From the IMG/VR virus record IMGVR_UViG_3300017783_000001: 64,000 nt of DNA; one strand, given 5' to 3'. Within the stretch, counting starts at the first letter, position 1; each line of letters opens with the position of its first letter. Both the position numbers and the translations under genes were made by a program. The notes under the pieces are model-generated. The model ran no database searches, was not told where the DNA came from, and saw only the letters and a program-made list of their open reading frames with translations. Origin of the DNA: a virus. This document shows positions 31,362-63,860 of the stretch, one piece after another.

Positions 31362-31950
31362 TTTCTATCTCCTTAATAATGTCTTTCGCAATATCTCCAG
31401 GTTCTTTTCCTTCAGCTTTGATAGATATAAACCCAGGTCTTTTTTTGTAATGTTCAATGGCAGGTCCTGTTTCTTTTTTGTATAACTGGATTCTATCATT
31501 AATAATATCTGGCTTATCATCTTTTCTTCCTCTCTTTGTAAGTCTTCTAATAACTTCTTCATTACTCACATCAAGGAATACAACAACATCATAAGCGATA
31601 CCATTTTTTTCCATATCTCTTACTTGTTGCATATATCTAGGATAACCATCTAACACATAACCTTTTGAAGCGTCTTTCTCTTGTAATGCTTTCTTCACTA
31701 ATTTTAAAACTATATCGTTAGGTGCAAACTTACCTTGGTCTAATAAGTTCTTAATCTTTTGTCCTTCAGGACCACCTTTATCAATTTCTTTTCTTAATAA
31801 ACCACCTGGGTAAATATGTTTGATACCAAAGTGTCTTATAATGTATTCACTATAAGTTGATTTACCACTTCCTGGTCCACCCATTATAATAACTCTAGTT
31901 TGTTTTGCTTCGTTCAAAAAATTGAATAGATATTGTTTAAATGTATCCAT
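31351..31950 (-). CDS. adk: Adenylate kinase
   Basis: GGPGSGKST, LDGYPR, RGRKDD; N-terminus MDTFKQYLFNFLNE. Confidence 0.88.
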   Translation of the reverse strand: MDTFKQYLFNFLNEAKQTRVIIMGGPGSGKSTYSEYIIRHFGIKHIYPGGLLRKEIDKGGPEGQKIKNLLDQGKFAPNDIVLKLVKKALQEKDASKGYVLDGYPRYMQQVRDMEKNGIAYDVVVFLDVSNEEVIRRLTKRGRKDDKPDIINDRIQLYKKETGPAIEHYKKRPGFISIKAEGKEPGDIAKDIIKEIENAI

Positions 31951-31951
31951 A

Positions 31952-33166
31952 CTAACCTTTCACCCAATCTTTTGCAATCGTAAAGTTTGCTCTACTAAAT
32001 TCTAATCTGTCTACAAGTTTAACTACATTACCAATCTTATCTGTTGCAACATAACCTTCAGGTGATGTTACCTTAAAACCATTATCGGTTTTTAAAAAGT
32101 GTCCGATAGATTGTATCTGTGCTATTTTTCTTACTACAATGTTTTTGCAATTCTGTAATGTGATGTATGTTGCAATTGCGAAATATAAAGATTGTTTATT
32201 TCTTTGAATAAATTTTATGTTATCTGCTTTTGCTTTAATATAAGGTGCTTTACCTTTTTCTGTTTTTCTATTATCTATTTCTTTGTCAATGAAACTTGTA
32301 TAGTATGGTTCAAAACCATCTACTAGTTGTTTAACACTACCCATACCTTGTGTACCTCTAACGATACTATTGAAATATGTTTTAATTTTAAAACCTACAC
32401 TTAACTCGTCTCTACTATCAAACTGATTTAACATAGGTCCTGCTTTAGATAAACTACCTTGTGCCATTCTTAACTGAGCATTGAATTGTGAAACTTCAGC
32501 ACGATTGAAACTTGCACTACCACTAGCGTCTTTGTATTCTGCACTTGGTACCCATACACTACCACTTCTGATTCCTCTAACATATCCAAAGTTAGCATTT
32601 AATTCTGACATTTTATTACCAACATATTGAGTATGAAACACTATGCCCATTCTAGCACGAGCAATCTTACGACCGACAGCACTATTAACAGGCATAGCAT
32701 ATGTTATAGTATTAGGAGTAAAGGTAATCATTGATTGTCCGTCAATGTTATTCACTTTCTTATCTTCATTAGTAAAGAGACAATCACCTTGGACAATGCC
32801 TCTTATACCTAATTTTTTCAATTCTCTTAATGCAACTTCTAATTTTGCACCAACACCACCTGGGTGATTTCTTCTTATGTCTGCTGAAGTGTAATTGATT
32901 TTAGGAGTTTTATTGAATACAGATTTTGTACCGACAAAGAATTTGCCGTTTTCAGGATTAGTTCCACATACTATCGCAGGAGCGCCGTCCCACTTAACGG
33001 TTACATTTACTCTATTGCTAACATTACCTGTTAACATTTTCTGCAAAGATTGTAAGAACGCTATTGCGTTTCTACCGCCTTTGGCACCGTTATTAATTAT
33101 TTCGTCTTCTAAATGCTCAAGGTGTGTGTTCGTACCCGAGCTAGAATATCCTTTAAAACTAAACAT
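31952..33166 (-). CDS. DUF6267-like protein with RNA-ligase/covalent nucleotidyltransferase motifs
   Basis: HLEHLED, KWDG (motif I), QGD, EGYV (motif IV), VKLV (motif V). Confidence 0.7.
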   Translation of the reverse strand: MFSFKGYSSSGTNTHLEHLEDEIINNGAKGGRNAIAFLQSLQKMLTGNVSNRVNVTVKWDGAPAIVCGTNPENGKFFVGTKSVFNKTPKINYTSADIRRNHPGGVGAKLEVALRELKKLGIRGIVQGDCLFTNEDKKVNNIDGQSMITFTPNTITYAMPVNSAVGRKIARARMGIVFHTQYVGNKMSELNANFGYVRGIRSGSVWVPSAEYKDASGSASFNRAEVSQFNAQLRMAQGSLSKAGPMLNQFDSRDELSVGFKIKTYFNSIVRGTQGMGSVKQLVDGFEPYYTSFIDKEIDNRKTEKGKAPYIKAKADNIKFIQRNKQSLYFAIATYITLQNCKNIVVRKIAQIQSIGHFLKTDNGFKVTSPEGYVATDKIGNVVKLVDRLEFSRANFTIAKDWVKG

Positions 33167-34726: not shown

Positions 34727-34803
34727 TGGCGACCTCGGCAGGACTTGAACCTGCAACATCCAGTTTAGAAGACTGGTGCTCTATCCAGTTGAGCTACGAG
34801 GCC
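34727..34803 (-). tRNA. tRNA-Arg(UCU)
   Basis: GGCCTCG/CGAGGTC acceptor stem, CCAGT-CTTCTAA-ACTGG anticodon arm, GTTCAAGTC T-loop, encoded CCA. Confidence 0.95.
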
Positions 34804-34814
34804 ATACTCCAGAT

Positions 34815-34899
34815 TGGTGCCACCGACCGGACTTGAACCGGTAAGGATTACTCCGACGGATTTTAAGTCCGTTGTGTTTACCAATTTCACCACGGTGGC
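34815..34899 (-). tRNA. tRNA-Leu(UAA)
   Basis: GCCACCG/CGGTGGC acceptor stem, ACGGA-CTTAAAA-TCCGT anticodon arm, long variable arm, encoded CCA. Confidence 0.95.
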
Positions 34900-38305: not shown

Positions 38306-39538
38306 TCATAAAAAGTTTTCTAATGTACCTTTTCTACTACCAGAGAAGAAGTCATAATCCTTAGGACCAAAACACCAAACATTCTCAATATACTTCATTG
38401 CCATAAATTCGTTTAGTTCTTCTTTAGTTTTAAACTTTGCATTTCCTTGAGGTCGTTGCATAATAACCATACCGATTTGACCTAAAAACTTTTCTCTATG
38501 TCTATTTATTAACTCATCACTTGACCTATATCTTACATTCTTAATCTTTGGATCCATAATGTTAACTAACATAAACTTTGATTTGTTCATAGTCTTTTCT
38601 GCAACAGGTAAATAGAAGTCGTCTCTCCACTTCTCATATTCATTGAATTTAAACCACGATTGATTTTCTTCTTTCTCACCACCTTTATTATATTGTTCAG
38701 TACTAAAGTATGGTGGACTTGTAAAGGCACAATCTATATCTGGTAATTCATCATAAGGCAAATCTTCTGCACCACAATTATATATCTTAACTTTTTTATT
38801 AGGAAAGAATTTGCTATACTCTTCAATCTGTTTCATATATTGTTTATATGTGTTAGGGTTTGGGTCGCAACCATAATACTCTTCTGCATTACTACTAAAG
38901 AAACCTGCAAGTCTATCACCCCAACCACAAGAAGTATCTAGTACCGTTCTTGCCTTTGTCATATCATATAAAGTTTTTGCAACAACAGGTTTAAATTGTG
39001 TTGCAATATATGTACCTAATCTAAAGGCACTCATATATGTACCTTCTTTTAAATGTCGTTCACTATTAATACCACGCCAGATAGGACCTAGACAACGCCA
39101 TACATCTTTTGCATTACCATTTTGCCATACATCTATAGGTGCTTTGAAACCATAACTACTACAATTTAATCTTAAATGTTGATGAAAATAATTAGATGAT
39201 ATATTATATGTACTAGGAGCGTCAATCAATCCTAGACCATACTTATCAAAACCATATTCATAATCATCATACTTCTCAAATACTTTCTTTTCAATCTGTT
39301 CTTTAGGCGTACATATCTTTGAAGTATCAAACTTTGATAAGTCAATAATACTTTTTCTCATATCTTCATATGATATTTGTTTGAGAGGAAACTTTGGTCT
39401 TTCAGTAGCAATATATTCTGCTAGTAATTCTCTAAATTTTTCTTTACCTAGTTCTTCTGTCCATCTATCAAACTGGATAGTGTCCATAATAGGCAAACCG
39501 TTTTCATCAGCGTATTGTTTAAGGTCTAGGGTCTTCAT
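38306..39538 (-). CDS. Amino (N4-C/N6-A) DNA methyltransferase
   Basis: LDTSCGWGDR (motif I), FTSPPYF (motif IV). Confidence 0.85.
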   Translation of the reverse strand: MKTLDLKQYADENGLPIMDTIQFDRWTEELGKEKFRELLAEYIATERPKFPLKQISYEDMRKSIIDLSKFDTSKICTPKEQIEKKVFEKYDDYEYGFDKYGLGLIDAPSTYNISSNYFHQHLRLNCSSYGFKAPIDVWQNGNAKDVWRCLGPIWRGINSERHLKEGTYMSAFRLGTYIATQFKPVVAKTLYDMTKARTVLDTSCGWGDRLAGFFSSNAEEYYGCDPNPNTYKQYMKQIEEYSKFFPNKKVKIYNCGAEDLPYDELPDIDCAFTSPPYFSTEQYNKGGEKEENQSWFKFNEYEKWRDDFYLPVAEKTMNKSKFMLVNIMDPKIKNVRYRSSDELINRHREKFLGQIGMVIMQRPQGNAKFKTKEELNEFMAMKYIENVWCFGPKDYDFFSGSRKGTLENFL

Positions 39539-39591
39539 TATTCCACATCATTAATAAAATTATTGGTATTAAAAATATAATTATTAGTGTT

Positions 39592-39620
39592 AATATACTA
39601 TAAAAATACATCATTGTCAA
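39592..39620 (-). promoter_or_regulatory. Sigma70-type promoter for the methylase
   Basis: GCTTGACA-N17-TATATT. Confidence 0.65.
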
Positions 39621-40213
39621 GCACCCATACCTGGCCAACCTTCACTTAATCCAAGGTCTTCCCATTTAGTATTACTCTCTTGTACATTTAGGTAAGGAAA
39701 CTCACCATTGAGTAATTTATATTCATCTACATAACTTTTTTCTATCGTATGATAATCTACACTAATGTAATGATATTGATAGTCACCATTCATTTTTTGT
39801 ATTTGGACTTTAACTTCTGGTAGATTATAATAATAAACTTCTATTGTTTTACCTGCTTTGACTTGTTGATTGATATAGTTCCATACTGCATAAGTTCTTT
39901 TAGAATTACCTTCTCTAAAACCACCTAGATAAGCATTGATTGTACCTTCAATACCACCTTTAGTTTGACTACCACCAATCTTAACTATTTTATCATCACA
40001 AGTAATAATGTATATTTTACCACAGGAATTTTGTCGTTCTTGTTTTGATACTGCAAACTTAACTTTCAATGGTGTTTCTGGTAGATGTAAATAACCTGGG
40101 TCTTTATATATCTGTCCTAAACATAACCAGTTGTCTAGTTTTAATTGTTGAATTTTATTTTTCTTTGCATATCCTAATTGTTCGGCAAGAGCATTCATAC
40201 TTCGTTCCCCCAA
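39617..40213 (-). CDS. GIY-YIG nuclease (Hpy188I/EndoII-like)
   Basis: GKIYII..D.KIVKIG, conserved E in TIEK, FPYLN. Confidence 0.65.
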   Translation of the reverse strand: MGERSMNALAEQLGYAKKNKIQQLKLDNWLCLGQIYKDPGYLHLPETPLKVKFAVSKQERQNSCGKIYIITCDDKIVKIGGSQTKGGIEGTINAYLGGFREGNSKRTYAVWNYINQQVKAGKTIEVYYYNLPEVKVQIQKMNGDYQYHYISVDYHTIEKSYVDEYKLLNGEFPYLNVQESNTKWEDLGLSEGWPGMGA

Positions 40214-40734
40214 CTATCCCAACCTTCTCTCTTCTGTCTTGCAAAGAGTTCAATGTATGGACCGTTTAATAAGTTTTCAATATGTGTATACATTATATCT
40301 GGTTTCTTACTATGTCGTTCTCTTTGTGATACGACTAATTGTGGTACTGATTTAGATTTTCTTTTAGGTTTACCTTTAGTTGCAAGTAAACACATTTCAG
40401 GATTACCTCTAGTCCAATATCCTAAACCTGTAAAGAAACCTAGTTTATTCTTATTTGTTTTTGCCCAAGTAAATCCTACCGTCTTATACTGAAAACCCCA
40501 GGCGTCTATTACATCAAATGCTAAATCTAAACTATGGTCAACAACCCACATCAATAAAGTACAATTGTCATCTGCAATATCTTTTACTGGTAAGTCTGTT
40601 ATATCTTTAAGTTCTAAAGTCTGATAGTGTTGACTAGGATTTCTGTCATCACCTTTCGGACTAAACGATTTAAAAGACCACGGTGGGTCTGCATAGATTA
40701 CACTATACTTTTTTTTCGGTAAGTTTATACTCAA
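40195..40734 (-). CDS. MT-A70 family adenine methyltransferase
   Basis: IYADPPW, LLMW, WGFQY, HSKKP, IELFAR, GWDSWGNE. Confidence 0.92.
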   Translation of the reverse strand: MSINLPKKKYSVIYADPPWSFKSFSPKGDDRNPSQHYQTLELKDITDLPVKDIADDNCTLLMWVVDHSLDLAFDVIDAWGFQYKTVGFTWAKTNKNKLGFFTGLGYWTRGNPEMCLLATKGKPKRKSKSVPQLVVSQRERHSKKPDIMYTHIENLLNGPYIELFARQKREGWDSWGNEV

Positions 40735-41200
40735 AATTTTGCGTCTCTTTGTTAATTAATATTTGTTTTGCACCATTACGAATATGAAAGTGTGTTGCCA
40801 TAGGTGTAAGAGGTGATAATGTTACCACTCTTTCAATGTGATTTGCTTTTGCATATTCTAATACCTTATTAATAATCTCTTTACCTGCACCTCGTTTACG
40901 AGACCATACCGTGTATGCAATAGCATTTCGTTTCTCGTTCTTTAGGTCTGCAAGTTCAGACATCATATCTAATTCTTTTACACTTGTAGGAATATCATTT
41001 GTAAACGCAATACAAATAATGCCTTCAATCTCTTCATTATATTTTAAACCAAATATCTTTCTACCTTTAGTAATACGCCAACCTAATGTTAGTTCAGGTC
41101 TTACTGGATCCTCTGATACATCAATGTCATCTAACTCTACTAGTTCAGTTCCATTAACCCATCTAAAAAAATCATCTGTCTTATCTTTAAAAAATTTCAT
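40703..41200 (-). CDS. GNAT-fold-like conserved phage protein
   Basis: DPVRP, YTVWSRKRGAG, VTLSP, FHIRNGA. Confidence 0.55.
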   Translation of the reverse strand: MKFFKDKTDDFFRWVNGTELVELDDIDVSEDPVRPELTLGWRITKGRKIFGLKYNEEIEGIICIAFTNDIPTSVKELDMMSELADLKNEKRNAIAYTVWSRKRGAGKEIINKVLEYAKANHIERVVTLSPLTPMATHFHIRNGAKQILINKETQNFEYKLTEKKV

Positions 41201-54432: not shown

Positions 54433-54483
54433 ATAATACCATAGTTCGTAGCATATGTCAAGCACTTTCCGAGCATTATGCTC
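54433..54483 (-). promoter_or_regulatory. Sigma70 promoter with TGCTC box inside a GAGCA-TAA-TGCTC palindrome
   Basis: GAGCATAATGCTC-N7-GCTTGACA-N17-TATTAT. Confidence 0.8.
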
Positions 54484-54628: not shown

Positions 54629-55777
54629 TTAGGGTTTTTGTAGTATAAAGACTGGCTCGTATTTAGCGCCACTCTCTTGTGATGATAGTTGAAGCTTGTA
54701 TGTATCAGTATGTTTGAAGCCTTCCTCAACTGCGATTCGCACCGTATCGTCTTCAAAGGTTTTATGTGATTTGATATTCGCTACATTCAATCCCATAAAC
54801 TTACCTGGTTTCAATCCTTGATAAACATTCTTAATAGTCTCTCGTAAGAAGCCATTGTTCCAATCTTCGTTAGTGCTGAAGTTTTTAAATGATTGTTCAG
54901 CGTCATCACTATATTGTTCCCAATTGAAATACGGTGGACTTGTAAATGCAAAGTCTAGTGTATTCTCTTTAGGTTTAAATGTTTCACTACCTTGTTTATT
55001 TAAGAAGTAGTGTCTATTAGGATTAGCGTGATTTGCTTTAATTTCTGTTAGTCCTTTAAATGTCAATGTCGCTGGGTCTGTACCTACATAGTTAATATCT
55101 GAAATCATTGCACCAAGTATACGACCACCATAACCCATACTCATATCCCAGACTAGTTCTCCAGGTTGCATAAAGTTTTGATATAAACAAGCAGCTGCTG
55201 TTGGTCTGAAATTAGATACACATTGAGTACCTGTATATCTTCTTAATAGACTTCGCATTGTACTTTCTGCTTTGTGTTTTGCTTGGTCGCTTGTATGTGT
55301 CTCATTACCATAGATGTCATATGAAATAGGTTTCAATTGATTTACTGAATACTTACCAAAGAAAGAACCAGTTAATAGTTTCTTAATACCTTTCTTAAAG
55401 TGTTCTTCGTTCTCATATATCTCCATAGGAGTTTTCATCTTACCACATCTAATACCAAAACTATGTGGCATATAAGACCAAGCAAGTGATAGACCTTCTT
55501 GGTGTGGTTTGATTACTTTATCTTGTGTCAATAAATCTTTACAATTTACAGCAGATAGTTTAGCAAACTTTTCTTTTCTCCATTGTTCGTCTACAGAATA
55601 ATAAGGAAAGCCTCTAGTCTGCCAATACTCATAGACTTCATCTATGTTTCTTTCTAGTTCAGCTTCATCGGTTACAACACCTTTGAGATTACCTTTACTT
55701 GTGATATTCTCTTCGCCTTGTATGTCAACAAACGCTTCTAGTGAAGCACTACCTTTTGTATCTGTAAGTTTTTTCAT
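54629..55777 (-). CDS. Amino DNA methyltransferase (same family as 38306-39538)
   Basis: SNFRPTAA, WDMSMGYGGR, FTSPPYF..EQY, LKPG. Confidence 0.85.
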   Translation of the reverse strand: MKKLTDTKGSASLEAFVDIQGEENITSKGNLKGVVTDEAELERNIDEVYEYWQTRGFPYYSVDEQWRKEKFAKLSAVNCKDLLTQDKVIKPHQEGLSLAWSYMPHSFGIRCGKMKTPMEIYENEEHFKKGIKKLLTGSFFGKYSVNQLKPISYDIYGNETHTSDQAKHKAESTMRSLLRRYTGTQCVSNFRPTAAACLYQNFMQPGELVWDMSMGYGGRILGAMISDINYVGTDPATLTFKGLTEIKANHANPNRHYFLNKQGSETFKPKENTLDFAFTSPPYFNWEQYSDDAEQSFKNFSTNEDWNNGFLRETIKNVYQGLKPGKFMGLNVANIKSHKTFEDDTVRIAVEEGFKHTDTYKLQLSSQESGAKYEPVFILQKP

Positions 55778-55780
55778 ATT

Positions 55781-56083
55781 CTATTGTCCACTCATATCTG
55801 ATTTACCGGTGCCTTTAGGTCCATTTACTGGAACTTTGTCACCATATTCTACGGTTGCATTGCCGTAGGCTTCTTGTTGTCTTATAGAAGTTAAATCAGG
55901 AAGAGGTGCTGTACCTTTGTCTTTACCGGATTCTACTTCTTGTTTATTAAATCTAGGTTTTCCTGATTTGTCTAAACTGCCGACATTCAATGGAAATCCA
56001 GGTCTTAACTTCTCTACTTTGCCACCTCTTTTTAAAAACTCTTCAACGGTTTCTTTTTTCATAGGTATTTCTTTTTGTACCAC
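55781..56083 (-). CDS. Hypothetical protein
   Basis: VEEFLKRGGKVEKL motif; probable start MKKET. Confidence 0.65.
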   Translation of the reverse strand: MVQKEIPMKKETVEEFLKRGGKVEKLRPGFPLNVGSLDKSGKPRFNKQEVESGKDKGTAPLPDLTSIRQQEAYGNATVEYGDKVPVNGPKGTGKSDMSGQ

Positions 56084-56322
56084 GCATAGAATCTTTTATC
56101 AGTAAAGTATTCTGCAATCGCATTAGCAGGAACTTGGTCACTTCTAATACAATCTGCTACATCCTGATAGTCTGTTATATCTACTTTGTGTTGTGTTTTC
56201 ATTTTCATATTACTTAATGTTATTAGTGTTCTTCTTCTTTTTTCCTTCTCGTAGGATTCGTCCATAATTAGGCCACCCAAACTTATCAGGACTTTCGCCA
56301 ACATATCGCCAACGAATAACAC
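56059..56322 (-). CDS. Hypothetical protein
   Basis: CIRSDQVP motif; probable start MDESY. Confidence 0.65.
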   Translation of the reverse strand: MLFVGDMLAKVLISLGGLIMDESYEKEKRRRTLITLSNMKMKTQHKVDITDYQDVADCIRSDQVPANAIAEYFTDKRFYAWYKKKYL

Positions 56323-56378
56323 CTGTGTTTGGATTCCTTTCGTATATTTTTTCTTTATTTTTATTCATAGTACTTATT

Positions 56379-57074
56379 CTACACTACTTTCCCAAACTTG
56401 TCAAGCAGGTCTAAACGATTAAAGTATGATTTATCAAAAACCTCTTTGTCTAGTTCAACTCCAATATATTGTCTTCTCATTTCTTTTGCAATCCAAGGTA
56501 CAATACCACTACCAGCAAATGGGTCAAATACTATTTGATTCTCTTTTGATAGATAATCAACTATAAGTTTAATAAAATTATCGTTCCACACATATAGATT
56601 GAAAGGACCTTTGATATTACCTAGTCTTTTTGTTTCATATACTAATATATTCTTTAACCAGTCACCACCTCTTTTGATAGTACCTTTCTTTGTAAATACA
56701 AGTGTATGTTGATAATTGAAGTAATACATATCTCTTTTTTCAACAGGTGTATTTCTTACCATTATCTTATAGTCTTTTAATTTAAAACCATTTCTTATCA
56801 TTGCTTGATGATATGTTATATGGTTAGGTAGTATCTCACCATTAATCTTTCTATCTGTTTGAGATATAACTACAAAACCTTCATCTTTCGTAATTCTTGC
56901 CATCTGGTCGCAACTTCTATTTTGAAACTCTTGGTATTGTTCTATGTCTTTACCCCACGGACCTTGTGATATATCAGGTAAACTAGTAAAGGTCAAATCA
57001 ATACTCTTGTCTGCTACTTTAGGAAATATATCAAAAGCGTCACCGTGATGAAACTTATTAACTACATCTTTCAT
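56379..57074 (-). CDS. Beta-class DNA-methylase-like SAM enzyme with atypical motif IV
   Basis: HGDA, IDLTFTSLPD (in place of TSPPY), VFDPFAGSG, YIGVELD. Confidence 0.75.
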   Translation of the reverse strand: MKDVVNKFHHGDAFDIFPKVADKSIDLTFTSLPDISQGPWGKDIEQYQEFQNRSCDQMARITKDEGFVVISQTDRKINGEILPNHITYHQAMIRNGFKLKDYKIMVRNTPVEKRDMYYFNYQHTLVFTKKGTIKRGGDWLKNILVYETKRLGNIKGPFNLYVWNDNFIKLIVDYLSKENQIVFDPFAGSGIVPWIAKEMRRQYIGVELDKEVFDKSYFNRLDLLDKFGKVV

Positions 57075-57610
57075 TTCTTTATCTCCGGTATATAATATGC
57101 AAAGTGTATCAATCTTCTATTCCCACTTCCGTTGTTTGCTCTATGTTCAAATTGAGGCGATTGATTTAACCAGACAAATTGTCCTGGTCTACAGAATATT
57201 CTACACTTACTTACACCATATGGTATGCCATCTTTATCTAAAATGTCTTCACCTGCAATCTCAATATAGTTTTCATTCATATCGTTACCTTCATCTAGGT
57301 ATACTAATATGTTTGAATTAAATTTATCTCCTGCAACAAAGTCATTATGAAATTCATTATTCTCTTTGGTTACTCCGTTCCACAAACCAGGTTCTTCTGT
57401 AAGTTCAAATTTAGGATATGTTTCTGATATAACTTCTTCTAGTTGTTCTTGTACTTTCTTAATCTCTTGTTTACAATTATCAGGTAGTTTTAAGTCTTCA
57501 GGATTGTAATCAATACTAGGAAACTTTACATCATCAAATAGTTGTACATTAATATCTACATCACCTGTATAAAAACCATCTTTAAAAAATGTTGTCATAT
57601 CATACTTCAT
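57071..57610 (-). CDS. 2OG-Fe(II) oxygenase
   Basis: FHND, ILVYLD, FEHRA, RR. Confidence 0.75.
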   Translation of the reverse strand: MKYDMTTFFKDGFYTGDVDINVQLFDDVKFPSIDYNPEDLKLPDNCKQEIKKVQEQLEEVISETYPKFELTEEPGLWNGVTKENNEFHNDFVAGDKFNSNILVYLDEGNDMNENYIEIAGEDILDKDGIPYGVSKCRIFCRPGQFVWLNQSPQFEHRANNGSGNRRLIHFAYYIPEIKK

Positions 57611-58506
57611 TGTATACCTCCGGTTATTTCGTGTACTTCACTTTGATTTAGTCTTCTACCAACACACCAGAATACATTAGTACCTTCATATATGTTTATG
57701 TTCTCGGTCATCCATTTATGTGCTTTTGCTTCGTATAAGTCATCTAACATAAATGATTTTTCTTTAGGATAGTACTCTTCTGAATCCGTGTAGTTAGGAT
57801 TTGTTATCTCCGTTTTCAGAGGAGTACTATAACTAGTTTTAGGTGTGTGAAATTCAAAAGGATAATCATTTTGTTCTATGCCAAAATAACTTCTTATATT
57901 CTTTGTTCTATCAGGTCCTACACCGACACCGATAACTCTTTTTACTTTCTTATTATATTTCTTTAAACCATACATTACTGCTGACATCTGAATACCTACA
58001 CCACAACTCATAACTAAATTGTCTATTTCATCTGGTAAGTTTTGCACTTGTTCGCCATTAGTCTCTAACATCAATTCAGGTTCTTCCATAATCCATTTAT
58101 CAAAAGATGTATAGAAGTATTTTTCTTTTTCTATAATATCTTTTGTTCTCTTTGCAAGTACACTATTGATACCGTGTCCTGCAACTATTCTTATCTCTCC
58201 ACCATAGTATTGTGCAAGGTGCATTATATGGCGTTTTTGTAATGTTTCAGGTTTAGTACCACCAACTGCAAATATTGATTTAAAACCAAACTCTTTTGCA
58301 ACTCTACTGATAACACTAGCGGTAGGACTATGTACTGAAACAGATTGTATAACTCCGTTATTGTGTTCATTTTTTATCCTGTCTTTATATTTTTCAAACA
58401 AGGCAATCGTTTGTCTCATTTTGCCACCATTGACATCACCATATGGAGCAAACAAATCGTCTCGTTTATAATATATATTATCGTATTTTTCTATGGGCGT
58501 CAGCAT
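57607..58506 (-). CDS. PLP-dependent fold-type II enzyme (ACC deaminase/cysteine desulfhydrase-like)
   Basis: YYKRDDL, GGKMR (PLP Lys), SVHSP, SCGVG, LD.LYEAKA. Confidence 0.85.
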   Translation of the reverse strand: MLTPIEKYDNIYYKRDDLFAPYGDVNGGKMRQTIALFEKYKDRIKNEHNNGVIQSVSVHSPTASVISRVAKEFGFKSIFAVGGTKPETLQKRHIMHLAQYYGGEIRIVAGHGINSVLAKRTKDIIEKEKYFYTSFDKWIMEEPELMLETNGEQVQNLPDEIDNLVMSCGVGIQMSAVMYGLKKYNKKVKRVIGVGVGPDRTKNIRSYFGIEQNDYPFEFHTPKTSYSTPLKTEITNPNYTDSEEYYPKEKSFMLDDLYEAKAHKWMTENINIYEGTNVFWCVGRRLNQSEVHEITGGIQ

Positions 58507-59677
58507 TAAATAATTTTCTCACTTTATCATTTGCAACAACATCAATAACTAAATGTGTTCTCCATTCGTCACCATTGTTAATTGCCATATGTGGTTTTCT
58601 AATATCTAGGTACCAGCAACTTCCTTCTTCCATATTAGTCATCACTTTAGTACCTGAAGTAGACCAACTTGTAAACTCTACATCTGGATTTGTTTTGATA
58701 GGTATATGTATTCTCATTAATCTACCATCTGCAATTCCTAGGTCTGGGTCTACTTGGTCTGTATGTCTTTGTAATTCTCCACCACCTGGTTTCAAATTCA
58801 TAAATCTTACTCTATGTATTTCTGTTTCAAATACATCTAATATCTTTTCTACTAGAGGAAACTTCTTACGCCAATCTGTATCTTGTAATTCAAATTGTTC
58901 ATCTTTGTTTTCTTCTTTCCACTTCTTATTCATTTCTACAGGTTTTGTAATAAACTTATAATCAGAAGAATAACCTCTTAATGAGATTGCACTCCAAGAC
59001 TTTGCTTTGTTGTAGTTTGAATAGTGATTAGTAAACTCTACTTCCATATCGTGTAATTGTTTTGCAAGTTGTTTTGTAATATCATCAAACGATACATTCA
59101 TAGGTTTCAATGTATACTTCTCATAGACAGGTATTTTTGGGTGTTGTCTATCTTCTAATACATTACCTGCGTGTCTAAAATAAACTCCTATAATATCTGC
59201 AACTGAATTAAACTTACTACCTACATAATCAAATCCTGTCTCACTTGCGATATGTTTATCAGGACCACTTTCTTCATTAATAAACAACCATACATTATTG
59301 TTAATATATTGTGTATCTTCCATTAATGTTGTAATAATATTTCTTTTATCAAATTCGTCTGTATAACCTAGATGTTTAATATGAATATCGCCAGGTAGTT
59401 TAGTACCTATCAATACACCAGGAAACATAAAGATATTAGATTTAACTTTTACTTGTGAATAGTGAATAAGACCTTTACCTAATAGTTGCAATTCATCTTT
59501 AGATAATGCTTCTGCAATATTGTTCTTCTTAAACTTGCTCATTTCGTGCTGAGCATAGTCATTATAAGAAGTAAATCTTTTTTCTAAATCTTTTAAATAA
59601 TCTATTTGGAATCCTTTTTGCCAAGGTTTACTTTCTGTGGCTGGGACTCCTTCATTGCTTTTTGGTATCGTTTCCAT
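58478..59677 (-). CDS. Asp/Asn beta-hydroxylase-family 2OG oxygenase with GNAT-like N-domain
   Basis: WSAISL, RVRFM.L.PG, HTD, RIHIPI.TN, KPH.A.N, RTHLVID. Confidence 0.8.
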   Translation of the reverse strand: METIPKSNEGVPATESKPWQKGFQIDYLKDLEKRFTSYNDYAQHEMSKFKKNNIAEALSKDELQLLGKGLIHYSQVKVKSNIFMFPGVLIGTKLPGDIHIKHLGYTDEFDKRNIITTLMEDTQYINNNVWLFINEESGPDKHIASETGFDYVGSKFNSVADIIGVYFRHAGNVLEDRQHPKIPVYEKYTLKPMNVSFDDITKQLAKQLHDMEVEFTNHYSNYNKAKSWSAISLRGYSSDYKFITKPVEMNKKWKEENKDEQFELQDTDWRKKFPLVEKILDVFETEIHRVRFMNLKPGGGELQRHTDQVDPDLGIADGRLMRIHIPIKTNPDVEFTSWSTSGTKVMTNMEEGSCWYLDIRKPHMAINNGDEWRTHLVIDVVANDKVRKLFNADAHRKIR

Positions 59678-60474
59678 TTTTTCATCTCCTTTTCTGCCTT
59701 ACGATATGCTAAGTCTAATTTTAGTTTGCTAACTTTCTGAACCATTAACTCACCTTTTTGGTGGTCGTATTCGTGTTGGCATACTCTACTCATCATACCA
59801 TCTAAATGTGCTTCTTTTAAATCTCTATTCTCGTCTTCGTATTTCATAACACATTTACGAGGTCTATTAATACTAACAAATAAAAAAGGAAAAGTCAAGC
59901 AGCCTTCTTTCATTAGTACATCTTCACTACTGGTCTGTATAATTACTGGATTAAAGGCCGCTATCTTCAATCCTTTTTCTATTGATTCGTGGTCTCCTGC
60001 AACAAACATATTGAAAGGTAACCCAATCTGTATCGCACTTAAACCGATACCACCATATTTGTGCATAAGAGCAAACATACCGTCCACAAGTTCTTGTCTA
60101 CTTTTTAGACCATACTCTTCTAGCATTTCATCTTTGAAAGGTGCTACAGGTTGTCTAACTCTTGGATCCTGTGGTGGTAATAATTCGTATTGAAATGATT
60201 TAGGGTCTATACCTTTTCTAATTTCAACATCTTTATTCTTATCTGTCATATCTTCAACAAAGCCTTGGTCTCTTTGTTCATTTAATTTTTTCATAATATC
60301 TTTGTTATCAATCCATTGACCATCTTCTTGTTGTTCAACTTCACCTTTTTTAATCATACCTTCTGCTTGTTTCATCAAGTCATCTTTAAACTTTTCTTCT
60401 TCTGCAACAGACATTCTTTGTCTATCACCTGTATGAACAGCAGTAGTTGGATTATCTTTTAAATCTTTAGACAT
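59602..60474 (-). CDS. def: Peptide deformylase with an N-terminal extension
   Basis: GIGLSAIQ, EGCLTF, QHEYDH. Confidence 0.92.
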   Translation of the reverse strand: MSKDLKDNPTTAVHTGDRQRMSVAEEEKFKDDLMKQAEGMIKKGEVEQQEDGQWIDNKDIMKKLNEQRDQGFVEDMTDKNKDVEIRKGIDPKSFQYELLPPQDPRVRQPVAPFKDEMLEEYGLKSRQELVDGMFALMHKYGGIGLSAIQIGLPFNMFVAGDHESIEKGLKIAAFNPVIIQTSSEDVLMKEGCLTFPFLFVSINRPRKCVMKYEDENRDLKEAHLDGMMSRVCQHEYDHQKGELMVQKVSKLKLDLAYRKAEKEMKKWKRYQKAMKESQPQKVNLGKKDSK

Positions 60475-62182
60475 TTTCTAACCTCGTAAAGTTTTGGTAC
60501 TTTTCAAATTTAATTATATTAGTAAATTTGTCAAACATAATATCTCCTTTATGTGATATGATAAAGACATTTTCTTTTGAAAGTGTAGCGATAATCTTAA
60601 AGAAGTCATCTGTTCCTTGACCATCTAAACTACTATCAAATATCTCATCAAGTATTAATAAATTTGTATTAACGGAGTTTTTCATCTTCGCAATACTTCT
60701 CCAAGTGAATAGTAATGACAAGTCAATTCTCATCTTCTCACCTTCACTAAAATTATTGTAGTTAAAAGAATCCATATGTCTACTCTTAACCGTCTCTTTA
60801 AACTCTTCGTCTAAATGAAAAGATATAAAGAAGTCCATTGATTGTAGGTACTGATTAATAAGTGTATTCATTACTGGAATATACTTCTTAATAATTTGTG
60901 CTCTTGCACCACTATCGTCTACAATCTGTCTTAATACATCAATATATTTCTTCTCTTCAATAACTTCGTCTCGCTCTGCTATTGTCTTAACTAGGTCTTG
61001 CTTCAACTTCAATATCTCTTCTTTGATATTTAGGCCTGAGGCATCCTCTACTTGTAGCAGTTCAATCTCATCTTGTATTCTATCACTATGTCTTTTAATC
61101 TCATCAACACTATGATTAAGTTTTGAAACATTTGTTTCTATAGTTCTAATAGTTTCTGATACTTTATCAAGGTTTAGTATCTTCTCTTCTGTATTAGTAA
61201 TTTCAGTTAATAGTTGTTTATAACCTTCATTAAGTTTATCTACAGCAGCCTTCTCTTCATTGATTTTCTCTTGTTTGAAACTAGGTTCAAGTTCTTGTGT
61301 ACAAACAGGACAATTAGTATTCTCTTCAAAGAATTTTAATGTTCTTTTGTGTGTCTTTAAATTAGTATCAATCTTACTTTCTAGTTTCTGTAATTGAAGA
61401 AACTTACTTTTAGTCGTTTCTTTGTTTTGTAGTTTTAATTTGTTTGTTTCAATTTCGTTATTGAGACTATTGATACGAACCATATAATCTCTTTTACCTT
61501 GTTGTGCTTTCTCTATGTCTTCTTTTTTTCTAGTGATAGCGTCTGTATCTCTACCTTGTAATTCTTCGTAATGTTTCTCTTGTAGATTAACTTTGTTTTC
61601 AATTAAATCTACCTGATGTCTCATTGTGGTAATGTCTTTGGTCAAGTCTTGTTGTTTACTTCTTAACAATAAGTTCATACTTGCAAATACTTTAATGTCT
61701 AGTATCTCTTCAATTACATCCCTACGATAACTTGCTCTCATCTTCATAAATGGTTCATAAGAAGAAGAACCTAAAATTACAACTTGACAAAATGACCTGT
61801 AATTAAGTTTCATTATATTCTGTTCAAGGTACTTTTGATAATCTATAGAAGAAGCATCCTGATTTAATAAAATGCCGTCTTGGTATATTTCAAATATGTT
61901 AGGTTTAATACCTCTTCGTATTTTGTATTTCTTTGGACCAATACTAAAGTAAACTTCAACAACGGTATCAGCATTGTTGATTGTATTAACCATCTGGTCT
62001 TTTTTAATAATTCTAAAAGGTTTGTTAAACAATGCAAAGCATAAAGCGTCAAGTAAAGTTGATTTACCTGAACCATTAGTACCTATGATTAATGTCGTAG
62101 GTGATTCATTTAAGTTTACGCTGATTGGTGTATTACCTGTAGAAAGAAAGTTCTTCCAGGTTATGTTATGAAATATTATCAC
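60467..62182 (-). CDS. gp46: Recombination endonuclease ATPase subunit (Rad50-like)
   Basis: KNFLSTGN, GTNGSGKST, CPVC hook, FSEGEK, LDEIFD, ISH. Confidence 0.97.
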   Translation of the reverse strand: MIIFHNITWKNFLSTGNTPISVNLNESPTTLIIGTNGSGKSTLLDALCFALFNKPFRIIKKDQMVNTINNADTVVEVYFSIGPKKYKIRRGIKPNIFEIYQDGILLNQDASSIDYQKYLEQNIMKLNYRSFCQVVILGSSSYEPFMKMRASYRRDVIEEILDIKVFASMNLLLRSKQQDLTKDITTMRHQVDLIENKVNLQEKHYEELQGRDTDAITRKKEDIEKAQQGKRDYMVRINSLNNEIETNKLKLQNKETTKSKFLQLQKLESKIDTNLKTHKRTLKFFEENTNCPVCTQELEPSFKQEKINEEKAAVDKLNEGYKQLLTEITNTEEKILNLDKVSETIRTIETNVSKLNHSVDEIKRHSDRIQDEIELLQVEDASGLNIKEEILKLKQDLVKTIAERDEVIEEKKYIDVLRQIVDDSGARAQIIKKYIPVMNTLINQYLQSMDFFISFHLDEEFKETVKSRHMDSFNYNNFSEGEKMRIDLSLLFTWRSIAKMKNSVNTNLLILDEIFDSSLDGQGTDDFFKIIATLSKENVFIISHKGDIMFDKFTNIIKFEKYQNFTRLENV

Positions 62183-63240
62183 TTATCTTGCACCTCACTA
62201 TATAAGTCTTTCACTATACTATTCATCTTATTTTTATCTAATTCAGTATCTAAACTATTAATATAATTTTGTAAGAAAGATAATGTATCTTCTCCTTGGT
62301 CCACTATATTAACATCAGCAGTTGAATTGATATTATAACTATCTTCAATAACATTTACTTCGTTTGTGTGTATATCATTATGTAGTCTATCAATAAAGTC
62401 ACCAAACTGGTTGACATCTGTTTTTTCTTCTACAATAACTTTGACAAAACAATCTTCGTATTCACTTATGTCCATATTACTATATGAATTTGTTTTATCA
62501 TTATATATTATCTTCTTAAACATATTGATAGGATTAGGAATTCTTGTTAGTTCTCTTGTATCTGTATCAAAGATATGAAAACCTTTAGGACATTGATAAT
62601 CTGACCAAGTAATCTCGTATTGTGTACCTAGATAAAAGATAGTACCGTTATCTGATTTTCTATGATAGTGACCAGAATATACTTTCTCAAATCTTTTAAA
62701 CAAGTCCATTTCTAAACCGTGTTCTTGGAAGTGTCCTTTGTGCATTTCAAAACCTTTAACTTCAAGGTGCCCCATACATATTTGTGCTTGACTTTCTGAT
62801 ATTGCTTTTAGACTTTCTTCTTCATTCTCTGGACATATCCAAGGTATGAATAGAATAGGCAAACCATCAAACTCAACCGTCTTTGGTTTCTCGTATATAA
62901 ATGGTTCGTTTACACCATCAAAAGTTGTAATTAGTTGTTGCATACTATTAATAGAGTTTGTGTTCTTATAGTATGTGTCGTGGTTACCTAGTATAATATG
63001 TGTATCAATCTTCATATCCCATAGTCTCTTCCAAAACTTATTTTGAAAGTTATGAGCAGTATTAAAGTTAATAAATTTTCTTCTGTCTACTACATCGCCT
63101 AAATGTATTAAGGTTGTGATGTTATTCTCTTCCAAGTATGGAAAAAATATCTCATCATAAAACCGGTTAAAATATTTAATAAATGCAGGACTATCACTTC
63201 TTGCACCGAAGTGAGTGTCGTTCAACAACGCTATTTTCAT
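62179..63240 (-). CDS. gp47: Recombination endonuclease subunit (Mre11-like)
   Basis: DTHFG, LGDVVDRR, GNHD, GHLE, SGHYH. Confidence 0.97.
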   Translation of the reverse strand: MKIALLNDTHFGARSDSPAFIKYFNRFYDEIFFPYLEENNITTLIHLGDVVDRRKFINFNTAHNFQNKFWKRLWDMKIDTHIILGNHDTYYKNTNSINSMQQLITTFDGVNEPFIYEKPKTVEFDGLPILFIPWICPENEEESLKAISESQAQICMGHLEVKGFEMHKGHFQEHGLEMDLFKRFEKVYSGHYHRKSDNGTIFYLGTQYEITWSDYQCPKGFHIFDTDTRELTRIPNPINMFKKIIYNDKTNSYSNMDISEYEDCFVKVIVEEKTDVNQFGDFIDRLHNDIHTNEVNVIEDSYNINSTADVNIVDQGEDTLSFLQNYINSLDTELDKNKMNSIVKDLYSEVQDK

Positions 63241-63242
63241 AA

Positions 63243-63860
63243 TTAAAAGTTCTCTAAATTTATCTTTGCTTTTCTAGTTCTTTTTAGTTTTGCACCTTTA
63301 GGTTTTGCCTCGTAAGGTTCACTTGTTGGTTCTTGGCTTGGTAAGTTCTTTTGTAAGAATTCTGTAAATTGATTTTTAAAGTCTCTATCATCACCTGGTT
63401 GCAAAGTCATATCGTCATAGTTTGCATCCATAATAAGCTTATGTTTGATTGTTGTTTGTTTCTTTTCTTTCTGTATTCGTCTTACAAAGGCATAATAGAT
63501 AATTTGTGTAAAGTATGCAAATGGATTGTTTGACTTCTCTGGATTAAAGTTACCTAGATATTGTAAACAATTCTCAATACCATCTGAAATCATATCGTCT
63601 CTAAAAGTATAATTGATAAAGTTAGGTCTATATGATAAGTGGTTTGCAATCTTTAAAAAACATTCTCCAATGTAATTAGTAACCGGAGGTTGCTTTCTGT
63701 TTCTTGCTTCTGCTTTATTACATTTCTCTTTATACTCTACCATTGCAGCTAGAAACTCTTTGTTATTAACATAGTGTTCCTTCTTCGCCGGTGTTCGTAT
63801 GCGTTTCTTTTTTTCAGGCACTTCGGCCGTTTCAATTTTTTTATTTGTTTTAGTTTTCAT
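63243..63860 (-). CDS. gp55: Late transcription sigma factor
   Basis: HYVNNKEF, NFINYT, MISDGIENC, NPFAYFTQI. Confidence 0.97.
   Translation of the reverse strand: MKTKTNKKIETAEVPEKKKRIRTPAKKEHYVNNKEFLAAMVEYKEKCNKAEARNRKQPPVTNYIGECFLKIANHLSYRPNFINYTFRDDMISDGIENCLQYLGNFNPEKSNNPFAYFTQIIYYAFVRRIQKEKKQTTIKHKLIMDANYDDMTLQPGDDRDFKNQFTEFLQKNLPSQEPTSEPYEAKPKGAKLKRTRKAKINLENF

Follow-up and report, generated by a model that had tools for sequence, protein, structure and literature searches.

A candidate phage DNA hypermodification module combining methyltransferase-fold, oxygenase and PLP enzymes

Introduction

The thymidine hypermodification pathways of phages ViI, M6 and PaMx11 are built on a core of 5-HMUDK and AADT (amino acid:DNA transferase), to which PLP decarboxylase, radical SAM, FAD and GNAT tailoring functions are added (Lee et al. 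2018/2021; PMC5889632, PMC8989533). Among these tailoring enzymes, gp226 of Salmonella phage ViI and M6 gp52 were shown biochemically to decarboxylate amino-acid:nucleobase conjugates in DNA (PMC8989533). A second group of phage systems couples a C5-methylase with a TET dioxygenase and further transferases to hypermodify 5mC (Burke et al. 2021; PMC8256090). In phage Mu, the GNAT-fold enzyme Mom makes N6-carbamoylmethyl-adenine. Outside DNA, wybutosine biosynthesis in tRNA-Phe involves acp transfer from SAM by the MTase-fold enzyme TYW2, hydroxylation by a 2OG oxygenase and methylations by TYW3/4. The hydroxylase of this pathway, TYW5, is covered in PMC2938197.

We examined a 64,000-nucleotide stretch (the window) of a marine T4-like phage, IMG/VR record IMGVR_UViG_3300017783_000001, in which an initial annotation had proposed a DNA hypermodification operon at 54629-59677. 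The cassette resembles the ViI-type pathways in that its PLP enzyme is a full-length homologue of gp226, a GNAT-fold tailoring domain is present, tailoring genes assort combinatorially around a core enzyme and the genes lie near replication genes. It differs from them in that no AADT, HMUD2 kinase or ThyA-like hydroxymethylase was detected in the window ORFs tested or in related contigs, the gene most often linked is an SPPY methylase-fold protein, and an AspH-type 2OG oxygenase and an S-x-P-D methylase variant are added, which that work does not report. The target is probably an exocyclic amine rather than C5 of thymine. As in the TET systems, a DNA methylase-fold enzyme is paired with a 2OG/Fe(II) oxygenase. 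However, the methylase here is of the amino (SPPY) type, the oxygenase is AspH or proline-hydroxylase-like rather than TET/JBP, no glycosyltransferase is present, and PLP-containing architectures exist without any oxygenase. Mom, whose sequence relation to the present proteins was not examined, likewise uses a GNAT fold to put an amino-acid-like group on an exocyclic amine of a DNA base, but it is a single protein with no fused oxygenase, methylase partner or PLP enzyme. The wybutosine pathway offers a precedent for the logic proposed below, with SAM enzymes capping the hydroxylated side chain, although its substrate is RNA, its families differ (Trm5-like, JmjC), no PLP decarboxylase is involved and no homology to the present proteins was shown beyond the generic MTase fold.

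Results

Organization of the cassette

The observation made in the initial annotation was confirmed, as seven tightly packed, co-oriented ORFs follow gp55-gp47-gp46-def. The upstream genes def, gp46 (SbcC-like) and gp47 (SbcD-like) were confirmed by Pfam and PHROGs, and gp55 by 77% identity to the late sigma factor of phage Mosig. Two small ORFs (o87 and o100) and a second related cluster at 38306-41200 had not been mentioned in that annotation. The features are as follows:

58478..59677 (minus strand), AspH399, 399 aa: fusion of an N-terminal GNAT-fold domain (about aa 24-173) and a C-terminal AspH-family 2OG/Fe(II) oxygenase (about aa 181-385)
57607..58506 (minus strand), PLP299, 299 aa: fold-type II PLP enzyme, homologue of ViI gp226 / phrog_3650, putative PLP lysine K29
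57071..57610 (minus strand), o179, 179 aa: small probable 2OG/Fe(II) oxygenase
56379..57074 (minus strand), MT231, 231 aa: beta-class PF01555 methylase fold with motif IV SLPD
56376..56404 (minus strand): sigma70-like promoter match, TTGACA-17-TAGAAT
56059..56322 (minus strand), o87, 87 aa: small conserved ORF of unknown function
55781..56083 (minus strand), o100, 100 aa: small Lys/Gly-rich ORF of unknown function
54629..55777 (minus strand), MT382, 382 aa: SPPY methylase-fold protein, proposed entry enzyme
40703..41200 (minus strand), GNAT165: stand-alone GNAT acetyltransferase
38306..39538 (minus strand), MT410: paralogue of MT382 next to uvsX

The def and AspH399 genes overlap by 76 nt, AspH399 and PLP299 by 29 nt, PLP299 and o179 by 4 nt, o179 and MT231 by 4 nt, and o87 and o100 by 25 nt, whereas o100 and MT382 are separated by 3 nt. 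The only real gap, of 56 nt, lies between MT231 and o87. The sigma70-like site found there (11 of 12 matches) could give o87-o100-MT382 their own transcript, but this is a lead only because the region as a whole is not enriched in such sites.

Domain and structural assignments

AspH399 matched PF05118 (E 4.6e-13), and its AF2 model had a pLDDT of 91.7. In a VIA-wide structural comparison, residues 24-173 matched GNATs (2pc1, Z 12.2, 146 aligned, rmsd 3.5) and residues 181-385 matched 2OG oxygenases, including L-Pro cis-4-hydroxylase (4p7x, Z 15.7) and AspH (Z 15.2). The oxygenase fold is closest to amino-acid hydroxylases (Z 15-16), whereas AlkB-type enzymes score Z 10-11 and no TET/JBP chain is among the 50 listed matches. 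The H305/D307/H375 triad is invariant in 28 sequences. The GNAT-fold domain, however, shows no obvious acetyl-CoA loop motif on inspection of the alignment. We identified 693 metagenomic homologues.

PLP299 scored 34.5 bits against PALP, just under the cut-off of 35, but matched phrog_3650 (E 1.8e-36) and showed clear homology to ViI gp226 by hhalign (99.5%, E 1.4e-22, 272 columns) and tblastn (E 6.6e-25). Its K29 aligns with the published PLP lysine K92 of gp226. PLP299 is only about 28% identical to gp226, so its reaction may differ. A tblastn search hit 348 phage records, mostly ViI-like, and more distant family members sit beside a radical SAM gene, as in phage M6.

MT231 matched PF01555 (E 1.1e-19) and has an intact SAM motif (FDPFAGSG), but its motif IV is SLPD instead of (D/N/S)PP(Y/F/W). 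The S-x-P-D pattern is conserved in all orthologues, at 47-98% identity. MT382 is composed of a helical N-terminal part and a class I MTase domain at about aa 185-382 (AF2 pLDDT 82), with motif I D211-x-S-x-G-x-G-G-R and motif IV FTSPPY at 278-283, both invariant in 14 sequences. Its PF01555 match was only 21.9 bits, below the cut-off, and it matched phrog_12517 (E 2.5e-15). The closest VIA-wide structural matches were the tRNA m2G methylases Trm11, TrmN and Trm14 (Z 17.4-18.8) and not DNA methylases, although the Z-scores of the top 50 class I MTases differ by only about 4 units. The only sequence-level PDB hits of the MT382 profile were DNA methylases, and these were weak.

The remaining three ORFs are lineage-specific and were found only in close relatives. 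For o179, an alignment of seven sequences showed that HxD...H...R (FHND...FEH...RR) is kept in the main subfamily, and Atlas neighbours scoring 0.95-0.96 partly carry PF13640. It gave no Pfam hit, so it is a probable 2OG oxygenase only, and it is present in 8 loci only. In 8 related loci, o87 is 63-86% identical, with no family hit above cut-off, and o100 is 49-85% identical, with only a weak sub-threshold SutA-RBD hit.

Recurrence of the cassette in uncultured phages

Absence of co-occurrence in other phages had been put forward in advance as an outcome that would overturn the proposal. On the contrary, the genes co-occur in many other phages, and across about 90 viral contigs the parts assort combinatorially, with the SPPY methylase-fold family the most frequent partner of AspH and PLP. 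Among 28 unique loci with at least 3 kb on both sides, AspH lies near an SPPY-MT in 21, and four of the seven exceptions are loci with AspH alone, among them the distant bacterial homologues. These distant homologues sit next to ECF sigma factors. The AspH and SPPY-MT pair lies next to gp46/47-def, next to gp43/gp44, in a complete 41-kb DTR genome (G005) and in an Acidobacteriota contig. In 27 of 28 unique loci that hold MT231, a PLP299 homologue is also present. The architectures observed were AspH+MT, AspH+PLP+MT231+MT, MT+PLP+MT231 without AspH, and AspH+F14+MT, where F14 is a divergent PLP-family member that keeps the lysine. In two contigs where PLP appears alone locally, the SPPY-MT is elsewhere on the same contig. 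One protein, P0241, is an SPPY-MT–PLP fusion of 829 aa. The genes form a modular set and not a fixed six-enzyme operon, in which AspH, PLP(+MT231) and F14 are interchangeable add-ons.

No cultured phage carries the cassette. The only cultured-phage homologue of the AspH399 family, gp4 of mycobacteriophage LilMcDreamy (blastp 1e-25 to 1e-40), lies directly after gp3, which matches the PF18724 amino acid:DNA transferase family above its cut-off, although this link rests on a single genome. MT382 homologues occur alone in Vibrio, Bacteroides and Staphylococcus phages, and in Vibrio phage 2.058.O the homologue sits among replication genes with no PLP found in the record.

Search for 5-hmdU entry enzymes

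A search for hmdU pathway genes beyond the window had also been suggested beforehand as a check. Profile searches with PF18724 (AADT), PF18747 (HMUD2-type kinase) and PF00303 (ThyA-like) returned no match in related contigs, including the complete G005, which has the MT+AspH pair, and G002, a near-identical 109-kb contig that is 59% complete. The PF18724 search recovered ViI and LilMcDreamy as positive controls. Nothing of the kind was found in 20 further window ORFs or by tblastn, and none of 88 unique loci had a tblastn hit to ViI or LilMcDreamy AADT, kinase or JBP-like proteins. Only 64 kb of the roughly 150-kb genome was read, and kinase and transferase families other than PF18747 and PF18724 were not searched, so that neither such families nor a 5-hmdU route elsewhere in the genome are excluded.

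Discussion

A proposed hypermodification route

We consider it somewhat more likely than not that the cassette is a new, modular pathway that hypermodifies the phage's own DNA after replication, by a route that does not pass through 5-hydroxymethyl-dU and yields an undescribed modification. Fold, motif conservation, homology and gene linkage were shown by the analysis, whereas every step of the following pathway is inferred. MT382, and/or its paralogue MT410, would use SAM to put a group on an exocyclic amino group of a base, for which the FTSPPY signature fits N4 of cytosine best. Because a gp226-type PLP decarboxylase needs a free alpha-amino acid, the group is most simply the 3-amino-3-carboxypropyl (acp) part of SAM, while a plain methyl group remains possible where the methylase occurs alone or with AspH only. 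The AspH-type oxygenase domain would then hydroxylate the side chain, with its fused GNAT-fold domain acylating or binding it, and PLP299 would decarboxylate the appended amino acid to an amine. MT231, whose base-stacking aromatic residue is replaced by Asp, would methylate that amine or act on the adduct rather than on a flipped base. The expected result is DNA that resists host nucleases.

The interpretation in the initial annotation, a different entry chemistry, for example an MTase-fold enzyme installing a methyl or aminocarboxypropyl group, is partly supported. Co-occurrence in other phages, the PLP family whose characterised members decarboxylate amino acids appended to DNA bases, the AADT neighbourhood in LilMcDreamy and the failure to find the searched entry enzymes in the window ORFs tested and in related contigs all support it. 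The combinatorial assortment of the parts, with the SPPY methylase-fold family as the most frequent partner, and the SPPY-MT–PLP fusion also link the cassette to DNA hypermodification, and the closeness of the oxygenase fold to amino-acid hydroxylases favors the proposed route. No modified base has been measured, and it was not shown that the substrate is DNA in this phage, which base is targeted or whether a methyl or an acp group is installed. The solitary MT382 homologues in cultured phages fit an ordinary DNA methylase and weaken the acp idea. The closeness of the MT382 fold to tRNA m2G methylases, its sub-threshold Pfam DNA-methylase match, the position of distant bacterial AspH homologues next to ECF sigma factors and the lack of an obvious acetyl-CoA loop motif in the GNAT-fold domain also count against the proposed route.

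Alternative explanations

Other readings appear unlikely but should be considered. The methylases might be ordinary orphan DNA N4-C/N6-A methyltransferases for restriction evasion that happen to lie in a hypervariable island with unrelated auxiliary genes (2OG oxygenases, a PLP enzyme) acting on host metabolites. The slot between def and the 775-aa peptidase is indeed variable, with phage Mosig carrying MazG plus a DUF4338 protein there, and marine T4-like phages carry many 2OG oxygenases (PMC9599517). Metabolic genes are also inserted in some loci, namely KdsA-like and SHMT in locus L012 and an epimerase and a PAPS reductase in locus L015, and MT382 homologues stand alone in the phages mentioned above. 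However, the same gene families travel together in unrelated genomic contexts and phage types, an MT-PLP fusion exists, the PLP enzyme belongs to a phage-specific family whose characterised members work on DNA, and MT231 has lost the base-stacking aromatic residue in all orthologues. Modification of phage or host tRNA/rRNA, for example an acp or methyl adduct that is then hydroxylated as in wybutosine or acp3U biosynthesis, is about as doubtful. The initial annotation had allowed for tRNA, as well as virion protein, as a substrate. The structural similarity of MT382 to tRNA m2G methylases, the tRNA genes and translation-related genes (def) of the phage and the wybutosine precedent favor this view, whereas the DNA substrates of the PLP family, the embedding of the cassette among replication and recombination genes in several lineages, the weak PDB hits of MT382 to DNA methylases, the narrow range of its structural Z-scores and the clear PF01555 membership of MT231 do not.

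Two further readings are the least likely. The cassette could be only the tailoring half of a classical thymidine hypermodification pathway (5-hmdU, kinase, amino acid:DNA transferase) with its entry genes elsewhere in the genome, as suggested by the gp226-like PLP enzyme, the LilMcDreamy neighbourhood, the partial genome coverage and the kinase and transferase families other than PF18747 and PF18724 that were not searched. The negative searches for PF18724, PF18747 and PF00303 in the 59% complete G002 and the complete G005, and for ViI or LilMcDreamy AADT, kinase or JBP-like proteins in the 88 loci, argue against this, and architectures of MT+PLP+MT231 alone suggest that the set is self-sufficient. 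Alternatively, the enzymes could hydroxylate, acetylate, methylate or decarboxylate a protein, a peptide or a free amino acid during infection, considering that the oxygenase is closest to free-proline hydroxylases and to AspH, a protein hydroxylase, carries a GNAT fold and sits directly after peptide deformylase, and that the distant bacterial homologues are not in DNA-related contexts. Nevertheless, this reading does not explain the constant pairing with PF01555-type or SPPY methylase folds, the gp226-family PLP enzyme or the AADT neighbourhood in LilMcDreamy.

A second related cluster

Finally, a second cluster at 38306-41200 lies outside the cassette. MT410, possibly part of the same system, is 31% identical to MT382 over the MTase domain, and in loci L013, L021 and L060 its orthologue is the methylase adjacent to AspH. 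GNAT165 is a possible accessory, as its homologue follows MT231 in loci L019, L054, L055 and L064. Its neighbours are MT-A70 at 40195-40734 and o198 at 39617-40213.

Organization of the cassette and its genomic setting

In order to place the cassette in its genomic context, the window, which is part of a T4-like phage, was compared with its nearest GenBank relative, Pelagibacter phage Mosig, which shows 59-77% protein identity in gp46, gp47 and gp55. The nearest virus record examined (G001) does not contain the region. The run of genes described in the initial annotation was recovered as seven ORFs that follow the recombination and late transcription genes, all on the minus strand, and its proposal of an operon for hypermodification with a different entry chemistry is partly supported by the results below. 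The genes are as follows:

63243-63860 (-), gp55
62179-63240 (-), gp47
60467-62182 (-), gp46
59602-60474 (-), def, peptide deformylase
58478-59677 (-), AspH399, predicted GNAT-fold and AspH-family 2OG oxygenase fusion
57607-58506 (-), PLP299, putative PLP enzyme
57071-57610 (-), o179, probable small 2OG oxygenase
56379-57074 (-), MT231, PF01555 methylase-fold protein
56059-56322 (-), o87
55781-56083 (-), o100
54629-55777 (-), MT382, SPPY methylase-fold protein

A 775-aa peptidase follows. The genes overlap or abut, with overlaps of 76, 29, 4, 4 and 25 nt and a gap of 3 nt, and the one exception is a 56-nt gap before o87, where a TTGACA-17-TAGAAT match lies. Two near-consensus sigma70-like promoters (11 of 12 matches), one at 54433-54461 (-) before the 775-aa peptidase gene and the other, this same match, at 56376-56404 (-) at the 3' end of MT231, suggest that the cassette is read as two units, although the region as a whole is not enriched in such sites. 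Mosig lacks the whole cassette and instead has MazG plus a DUF4338 protein in that slot, and the DUF4338 protein is not related to MT382.

Domain identification of the cassette proteins

The AF2 model of AspH399 (pLDDT 91.7) showed two domains. Residues 24-173 superpose on GNAT acetyltransferases (2pc1 Z 12.2, 146 aligned, rmsd 3.5; several others at Z 10-11), supporting a GNAT fold. However, no acyl-CoA pyrophosphate-binding loop (Q/R-x-x-G-x-G/A) was evident after beta-4 on inspection of a 28-sequence alignment, no Pfam GNAT hit was obtained and cofactor binding was not modelled, which leaves acyl-CoA use by this domain undecided. Residues 181-385 form a double-stranded beta-helix oxygenase with closest matches to L-proline cis-4-hydroxylase (4p7x, Z 15.7), human AspH (Z 15.2, 167 aligned residues) and a nucleoside-antibiotic hydroxylase (Z 15.0), whereas AlkB-type enzymes score Z 10-11 and no TET/JBP chain is among the 50 listed matches. 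Membership of the AspH family is supported by PF05118 (E 4.6e-13, 49.7 bits against a cut-off of 22.6) and by the iron triad H305, D307 and H375, which is invariant in 28 homologues. No TPR domain is present, and the equally good match to free-proline hydroxylases suggests a small amino-acid-like substrate, although beta-hydroxylation of Asp/Asn in EGF-like protein domains was not assayed.

PLP299 scored just under the PF00291 (PALP) cut-off (34.5 against 35 bits) and gave only weak PDB hits to cysteine synthase and to ACC deaminase (1j0a). These observations alone do not settle its assignment to the fold-type II PLP enzymes, although the lysine in VNGGK (K29) is invariant, phrog_3650 is matched at E 1.8e-36, and ViI gp226 is itself below the PALP cut-off at 30.7 bits. 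The o179 protein has no Pfam hit but keeps an HxD...H...R pattern, its Atlas neighbours partly carry PF13640, and it is probably a small 2OG oxygenase. By hhalign it is not detectably related to the F19 2OG-FeII_Oxy_3 family, nor to PLP299 or its divergent relative F14.

MT231 is a clear PF01555 member (E 1e-19, 71.7 bits against a cut-off of 26.7) with an intact SAM-binding motif I (FDPFAGSG). However, its motif IV reads SLPD instead of (D/N/S)-P-P-(Y/F/W), and all orthologues down to 47% identity have S-x-P-D. MT382 has a helical N-terminal part and a class I methylase domain, with motif I residues D211/G215/G217/R219 conserved and FTSPPY invariant in 14 sequences; the motif IV feature is also present in MT410, its paralogue elsewhere in the window. 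MT382 itself falls below the PF01555 cut-off with 21.9 bits, although relatives at loci L014 (28.6) and L021 (27.1) pass. The best structural neighbours of its model (pLDDT 82) are the tRNA m2G methylases Trm11, TrmN and Trm14 (Z 17.4-18.8), but the top 50 rows span only about 4 Z units, a Foldseek search returned only generic class I methylases, and profile searches gave only weak DNA-methylase hits. Neither the use of DNA as substrate nor the transfer of a methyl group was measured here. A search of NCBIfam gave nothing useful, and no complex was predicted, as no physical binding is claimed.

Comparative genomics reveals a modular system

Homolog searches returned 693 metagenomic proteins related to AspH399 and 950 related to MT382, and single sequence variants were seen on 210 and 294 contigs, respectively, some up to 173 kb long. 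We examined 26 viral loci seeded on AspH, 80 seeded on PLP299 and 12 from MAGs. Failure of the genes to co-occur in other phages had been named beforehand as an outcome that would overturn the proposal; instead, the loci showed a modular system. AspH lies near a member of the SPPY-MT family in 21 of 28 unique loci with at least 3 kb on both sides, and four of the seven exceptions are loci with AspH alone, among them the distant bacterial homologues. The SPPY-MT family has three forms, namely the MT382 type, the MT410 type and a long type of about 520 aa. AspH and the methylase are directly adjacent in loci L012, L021, L022, L024 and L039, and the pair occurs next to gp46/47-def, next to gp43 polymerase and the gp44 clamp loader (L013, L019, L021), in a complete 41-kb genome with terminal repeats (G005), and in a 457-kb Acidobacteriota contig. 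The distant bacterial AspH homologues (24-31% identity) lie beside ECF sigma/SnoaL genes and say nothing about the phage clade.

PLP299 homologues occur as AspH-PLP-MT231(+MT), as MT382-PLP-MT231 without AspH, as MT231-PLP-long MT without AspH, as AspH-PLP-long MT, or apparently alone. In two larger contigs where PLP appears alone, the SPPY-MT is elsewhere on the contig. AspH was not found in five contigs where PLP appears alone, although that search included no positive control, and the neighbours in such loci were mostly of unknown function or looked unrelated (DUF6433, trypsin-like, RuvC-like, MoxR-like). PLP299-family genes lie next to a trypsin-like protease in two unrelated contexts, the P0241 contig described below and locus L070 (5409-9469), where they also lie with a MoxR-like AAA_5 ATPase and a RuvC-like protein; the meaning of this arrangement is unknown. 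Where PLP299 is missing next to AspH, a 251-265-aa family (F14) often takes its place, which is a divergent member of the same PLP family and retains the lysine (hhalign 91.5%, E 8.5e-7). MT231 comes with PLP299 in 27 of 28 unique loci, whereas o179, o87 and o100 are confined to the closest relatives.

A single 829-aa protein, P0241 (JGI sample 3300072015, 9.3-kb contig), fuses a long SPPY-MT to a PLP299-like domain. Its reading frame was not checked at the DNA level. It lies in an integrase-bearing island, between an integrase and a Sel1/trypsin-like gene and next to rpsI, and looks like an integrated element in a bacterium. Metabolic genes are inserted beside the module in some phages, with a KdsA-like DAHP_synth_1 protein and a serine hydroxymethyltransferase in L012 (10243-12212), and an NAD-dependent sugar epimerase and a PAPS reductase in L015 (9118-11499).

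Possible relation to amino-acid adducts on DNA

A tblastn search with PLP299 hit 348 phage records, mostly ViI-like Ackermannviridae, and the hit in Salmonella phage Vi01 is orf00226. The profile comparison with this protein is full length (hhalign 99.5%, E 1.4e-22) and aligns K29 with K92. Lee et al. 2021 showed that ViI gp226 and M6 gp52 are PLP-dependent decarboxylases acting on amino acids appended to thymine in polymeric DNA, and named K92 as the likely Schiff-base lysine (PMC8989533). The feature of a gp226/gp52-type protein is thus present as homology, while the activity of PLP299 itself was not assayed. More distant members of the family (31-33% identity) sit directly after a radical SAM gene, which is the M6 arrangement.

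The only cultured-phage homologue of AspH399 is gp4 of Mycobacterium phage LilMcDreamy (NC_051582, 855-3759 for gp2 to gp4), and gp4 has no other homologue among cultured phages. The preceding gene, gp3, is unannotated but matches PF18724 (amino acid:DNA transferase) above its cut-off, and gp2 is annotated as a queuine tRNA-ribosyltransferase, although Pfam shows only a weak TET/JBP match. Together, these three genes look like an undescribed thymine hypermodification cluster in a cultivable phage. So two different parts of the cassette have their nearest informative relatives in systems that build amino-acid adducts on DNA.

A search for genes of the 5-hmdU route had been suggested as a check, and we looked for the usual entry enzymes. 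The amino acid:DNA transferase profile (PF18724) gave no match in 8 related viral records, including the complete G005 and a 109-kb contig 81-98% identical in these proteins (G002), while ViI and LilMcDreamy were recovered as positive controls. The ThyA-like profile (PF00303) was absent from related records G002-G005, while the control genomes matched, and no hit to the LilMcDreamy JBP-like gp2 was found, although incomplete genomes limit this result and only the window of this phage's own genome was examined. The 5-hmdU kinase 2 profile (PF18747, HMUD2) was likewise absent from 5 related records; as no positive control was run for this family and other kinase or transferase families were not searched, this leaves the presence of a 5-hmdU kinase undecided. 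In the window, an AAA_33/Zeta-toxin-like P-loop kinase (224 aa, 30093-30767) of unknown substrate, which did not match the 5-hmdU kinase family searched, lies in a row with an adenylate kinase (199 aa) and a DUF6267 protein (404 aa) at 30093-33166 (-). Searches by tblastn with the ViI and LilMcDreamy proteins found nothing in the window or in 88 unique loci, and twenty further window ORFs gave replication and nucleotide-metabolism families only.

Proposed pathway and alternative explanations

The homology, motif conservation and gene linkage are results of the analysis, whereas each catalytic step that follows is inferred and none has been shown. The SPPY methylase fold is the partner seen in most architectures, so it is the best candidate for the entry enzyme. 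A gp226-type enzyme needs a free alpha-amino acid, and sets of SPPY-MT, PLP and MT231 exist without any oxygenase; therefore, the amino-acid moiety must come from a SAM-using methylase fold or from the PLP enzyme itself. The simplest source is the aminocarboxypropyl (acp) part of SAM, as in TYW2 of the wybutosine pathway. On that reading, AspH399 would hydroxylate the side chain, which fits its likeness to amino-acid and Asp/Asn beta-hydroxylases, and its GNAT-fold domain would acylate or hold the alpha-amine. PLP299 would decarboxylate the adduct to an aminopropyl group, and MT231 would methylate an aliphatic amine rather than a flipped base, since its stacking aromatic residue is replaced by Asp. 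FTSPPY is the classical N4-cytosine signature and the Vibrio phage homologue of MT382 is annotated that way, so cytosine N4 is the first guess for the target. However, MT382 homologues stand alone in Vibrio, Bacteroides and Staphylococcus phages, as ordinary methylases would, which argues against the acp idea; the context in Aeromonas phage TSW001 is unannotated. A general route of methylation, hydroxymethyl formation by AspH and then amino-acid attachment was considered and rejected as the general route, because PLP, MT231 and SPPY-MT sets exist without AspH.

In its most far-reaching form, which we consider unlikely although the evidence does not rule it out, an SPPY methylase-fold enzyme transfers the 3-amino-3-carboxypropyl group of SAM to an exocyclic amine of a DNA base, and the adduct is then beta-hydroxylated and acylated by the GNAT-AspH fusion, decarboxylated to an aminopropyl group by the gp226-like PLP enzyme and N-methylated by the S-x-P-D methylase. 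This would be the first acp-type DNA modification, and the result would be a family of undescribed cationic bases in abundant ocean phages.

The alternatives considered were ordinary methylases lying beside unrelated auxiliary genes, RNA modification, tailoring for a 5-hmdU route encoded elsewhere, and protein or metabolite tailoring. These remain possible, and taken together they are only a little less likely than not. Each of them fails to explain at least one of three results, namely the gp226 homology, the cross-context linkage and fusion, or the conserved loss of the aromatic residue in MT231.

Phage DNA hypermodifications defeat restriction and CRISPR-type nucleases and have yielded new enzyme chemistry and tools, and all amino-acid-derived adducts characterised so far start from 5-hydroxymethyl-dU. 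The module described here, which is common in ocean viromes, appears to reach an amino-acid-type adduct through a methylase-fold enzyme instead. Phage DNA hypermodification is already known and the probable novelty lies in the entry chemistry, but the assignment of the cassette to hypermodification, like its entry chemistry, is supported so far only by inference from sequence and structure; literature searches found no description of this cassette in the library searched. If confirmed, the module would add a new entry chemistry and probably new bases, would explain part of the many unassigned 2OG oxygenases of marine T4-like phages, and would matter for sequencing and for methylation calling in marine viromes.

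A second cluster of modification-type genes

Beyond the cassette at 54629-59677, the window holds a second cluster (38306-41200, minus strand) between uvsX and the gp43 polymerase:

40703-41200 (-), GNAT165, GNAT (165 aa)
40195-40734 (-), MT-A70 methylase (179 aa)
39617-40213 (-), o198, 198-aa ORF with no family
38306-39538 (-), MT410, SPPY paralogue of MT382

The orthologues of MT410 are the methylases that sit beside AspH in loci L013, L021 and L060, and a GNAT165 homologue follows MT231 in L019, L054, L055 and L064. This cluster may belong to the same system. With MT231 and MT382, the 64-kb window thus holds four amino-methylase-fold genes. The window also carries two tRNA genes, tRNA-Arg(TCT) and tRNA-Leu(TAA), at 34727-34899 (-).
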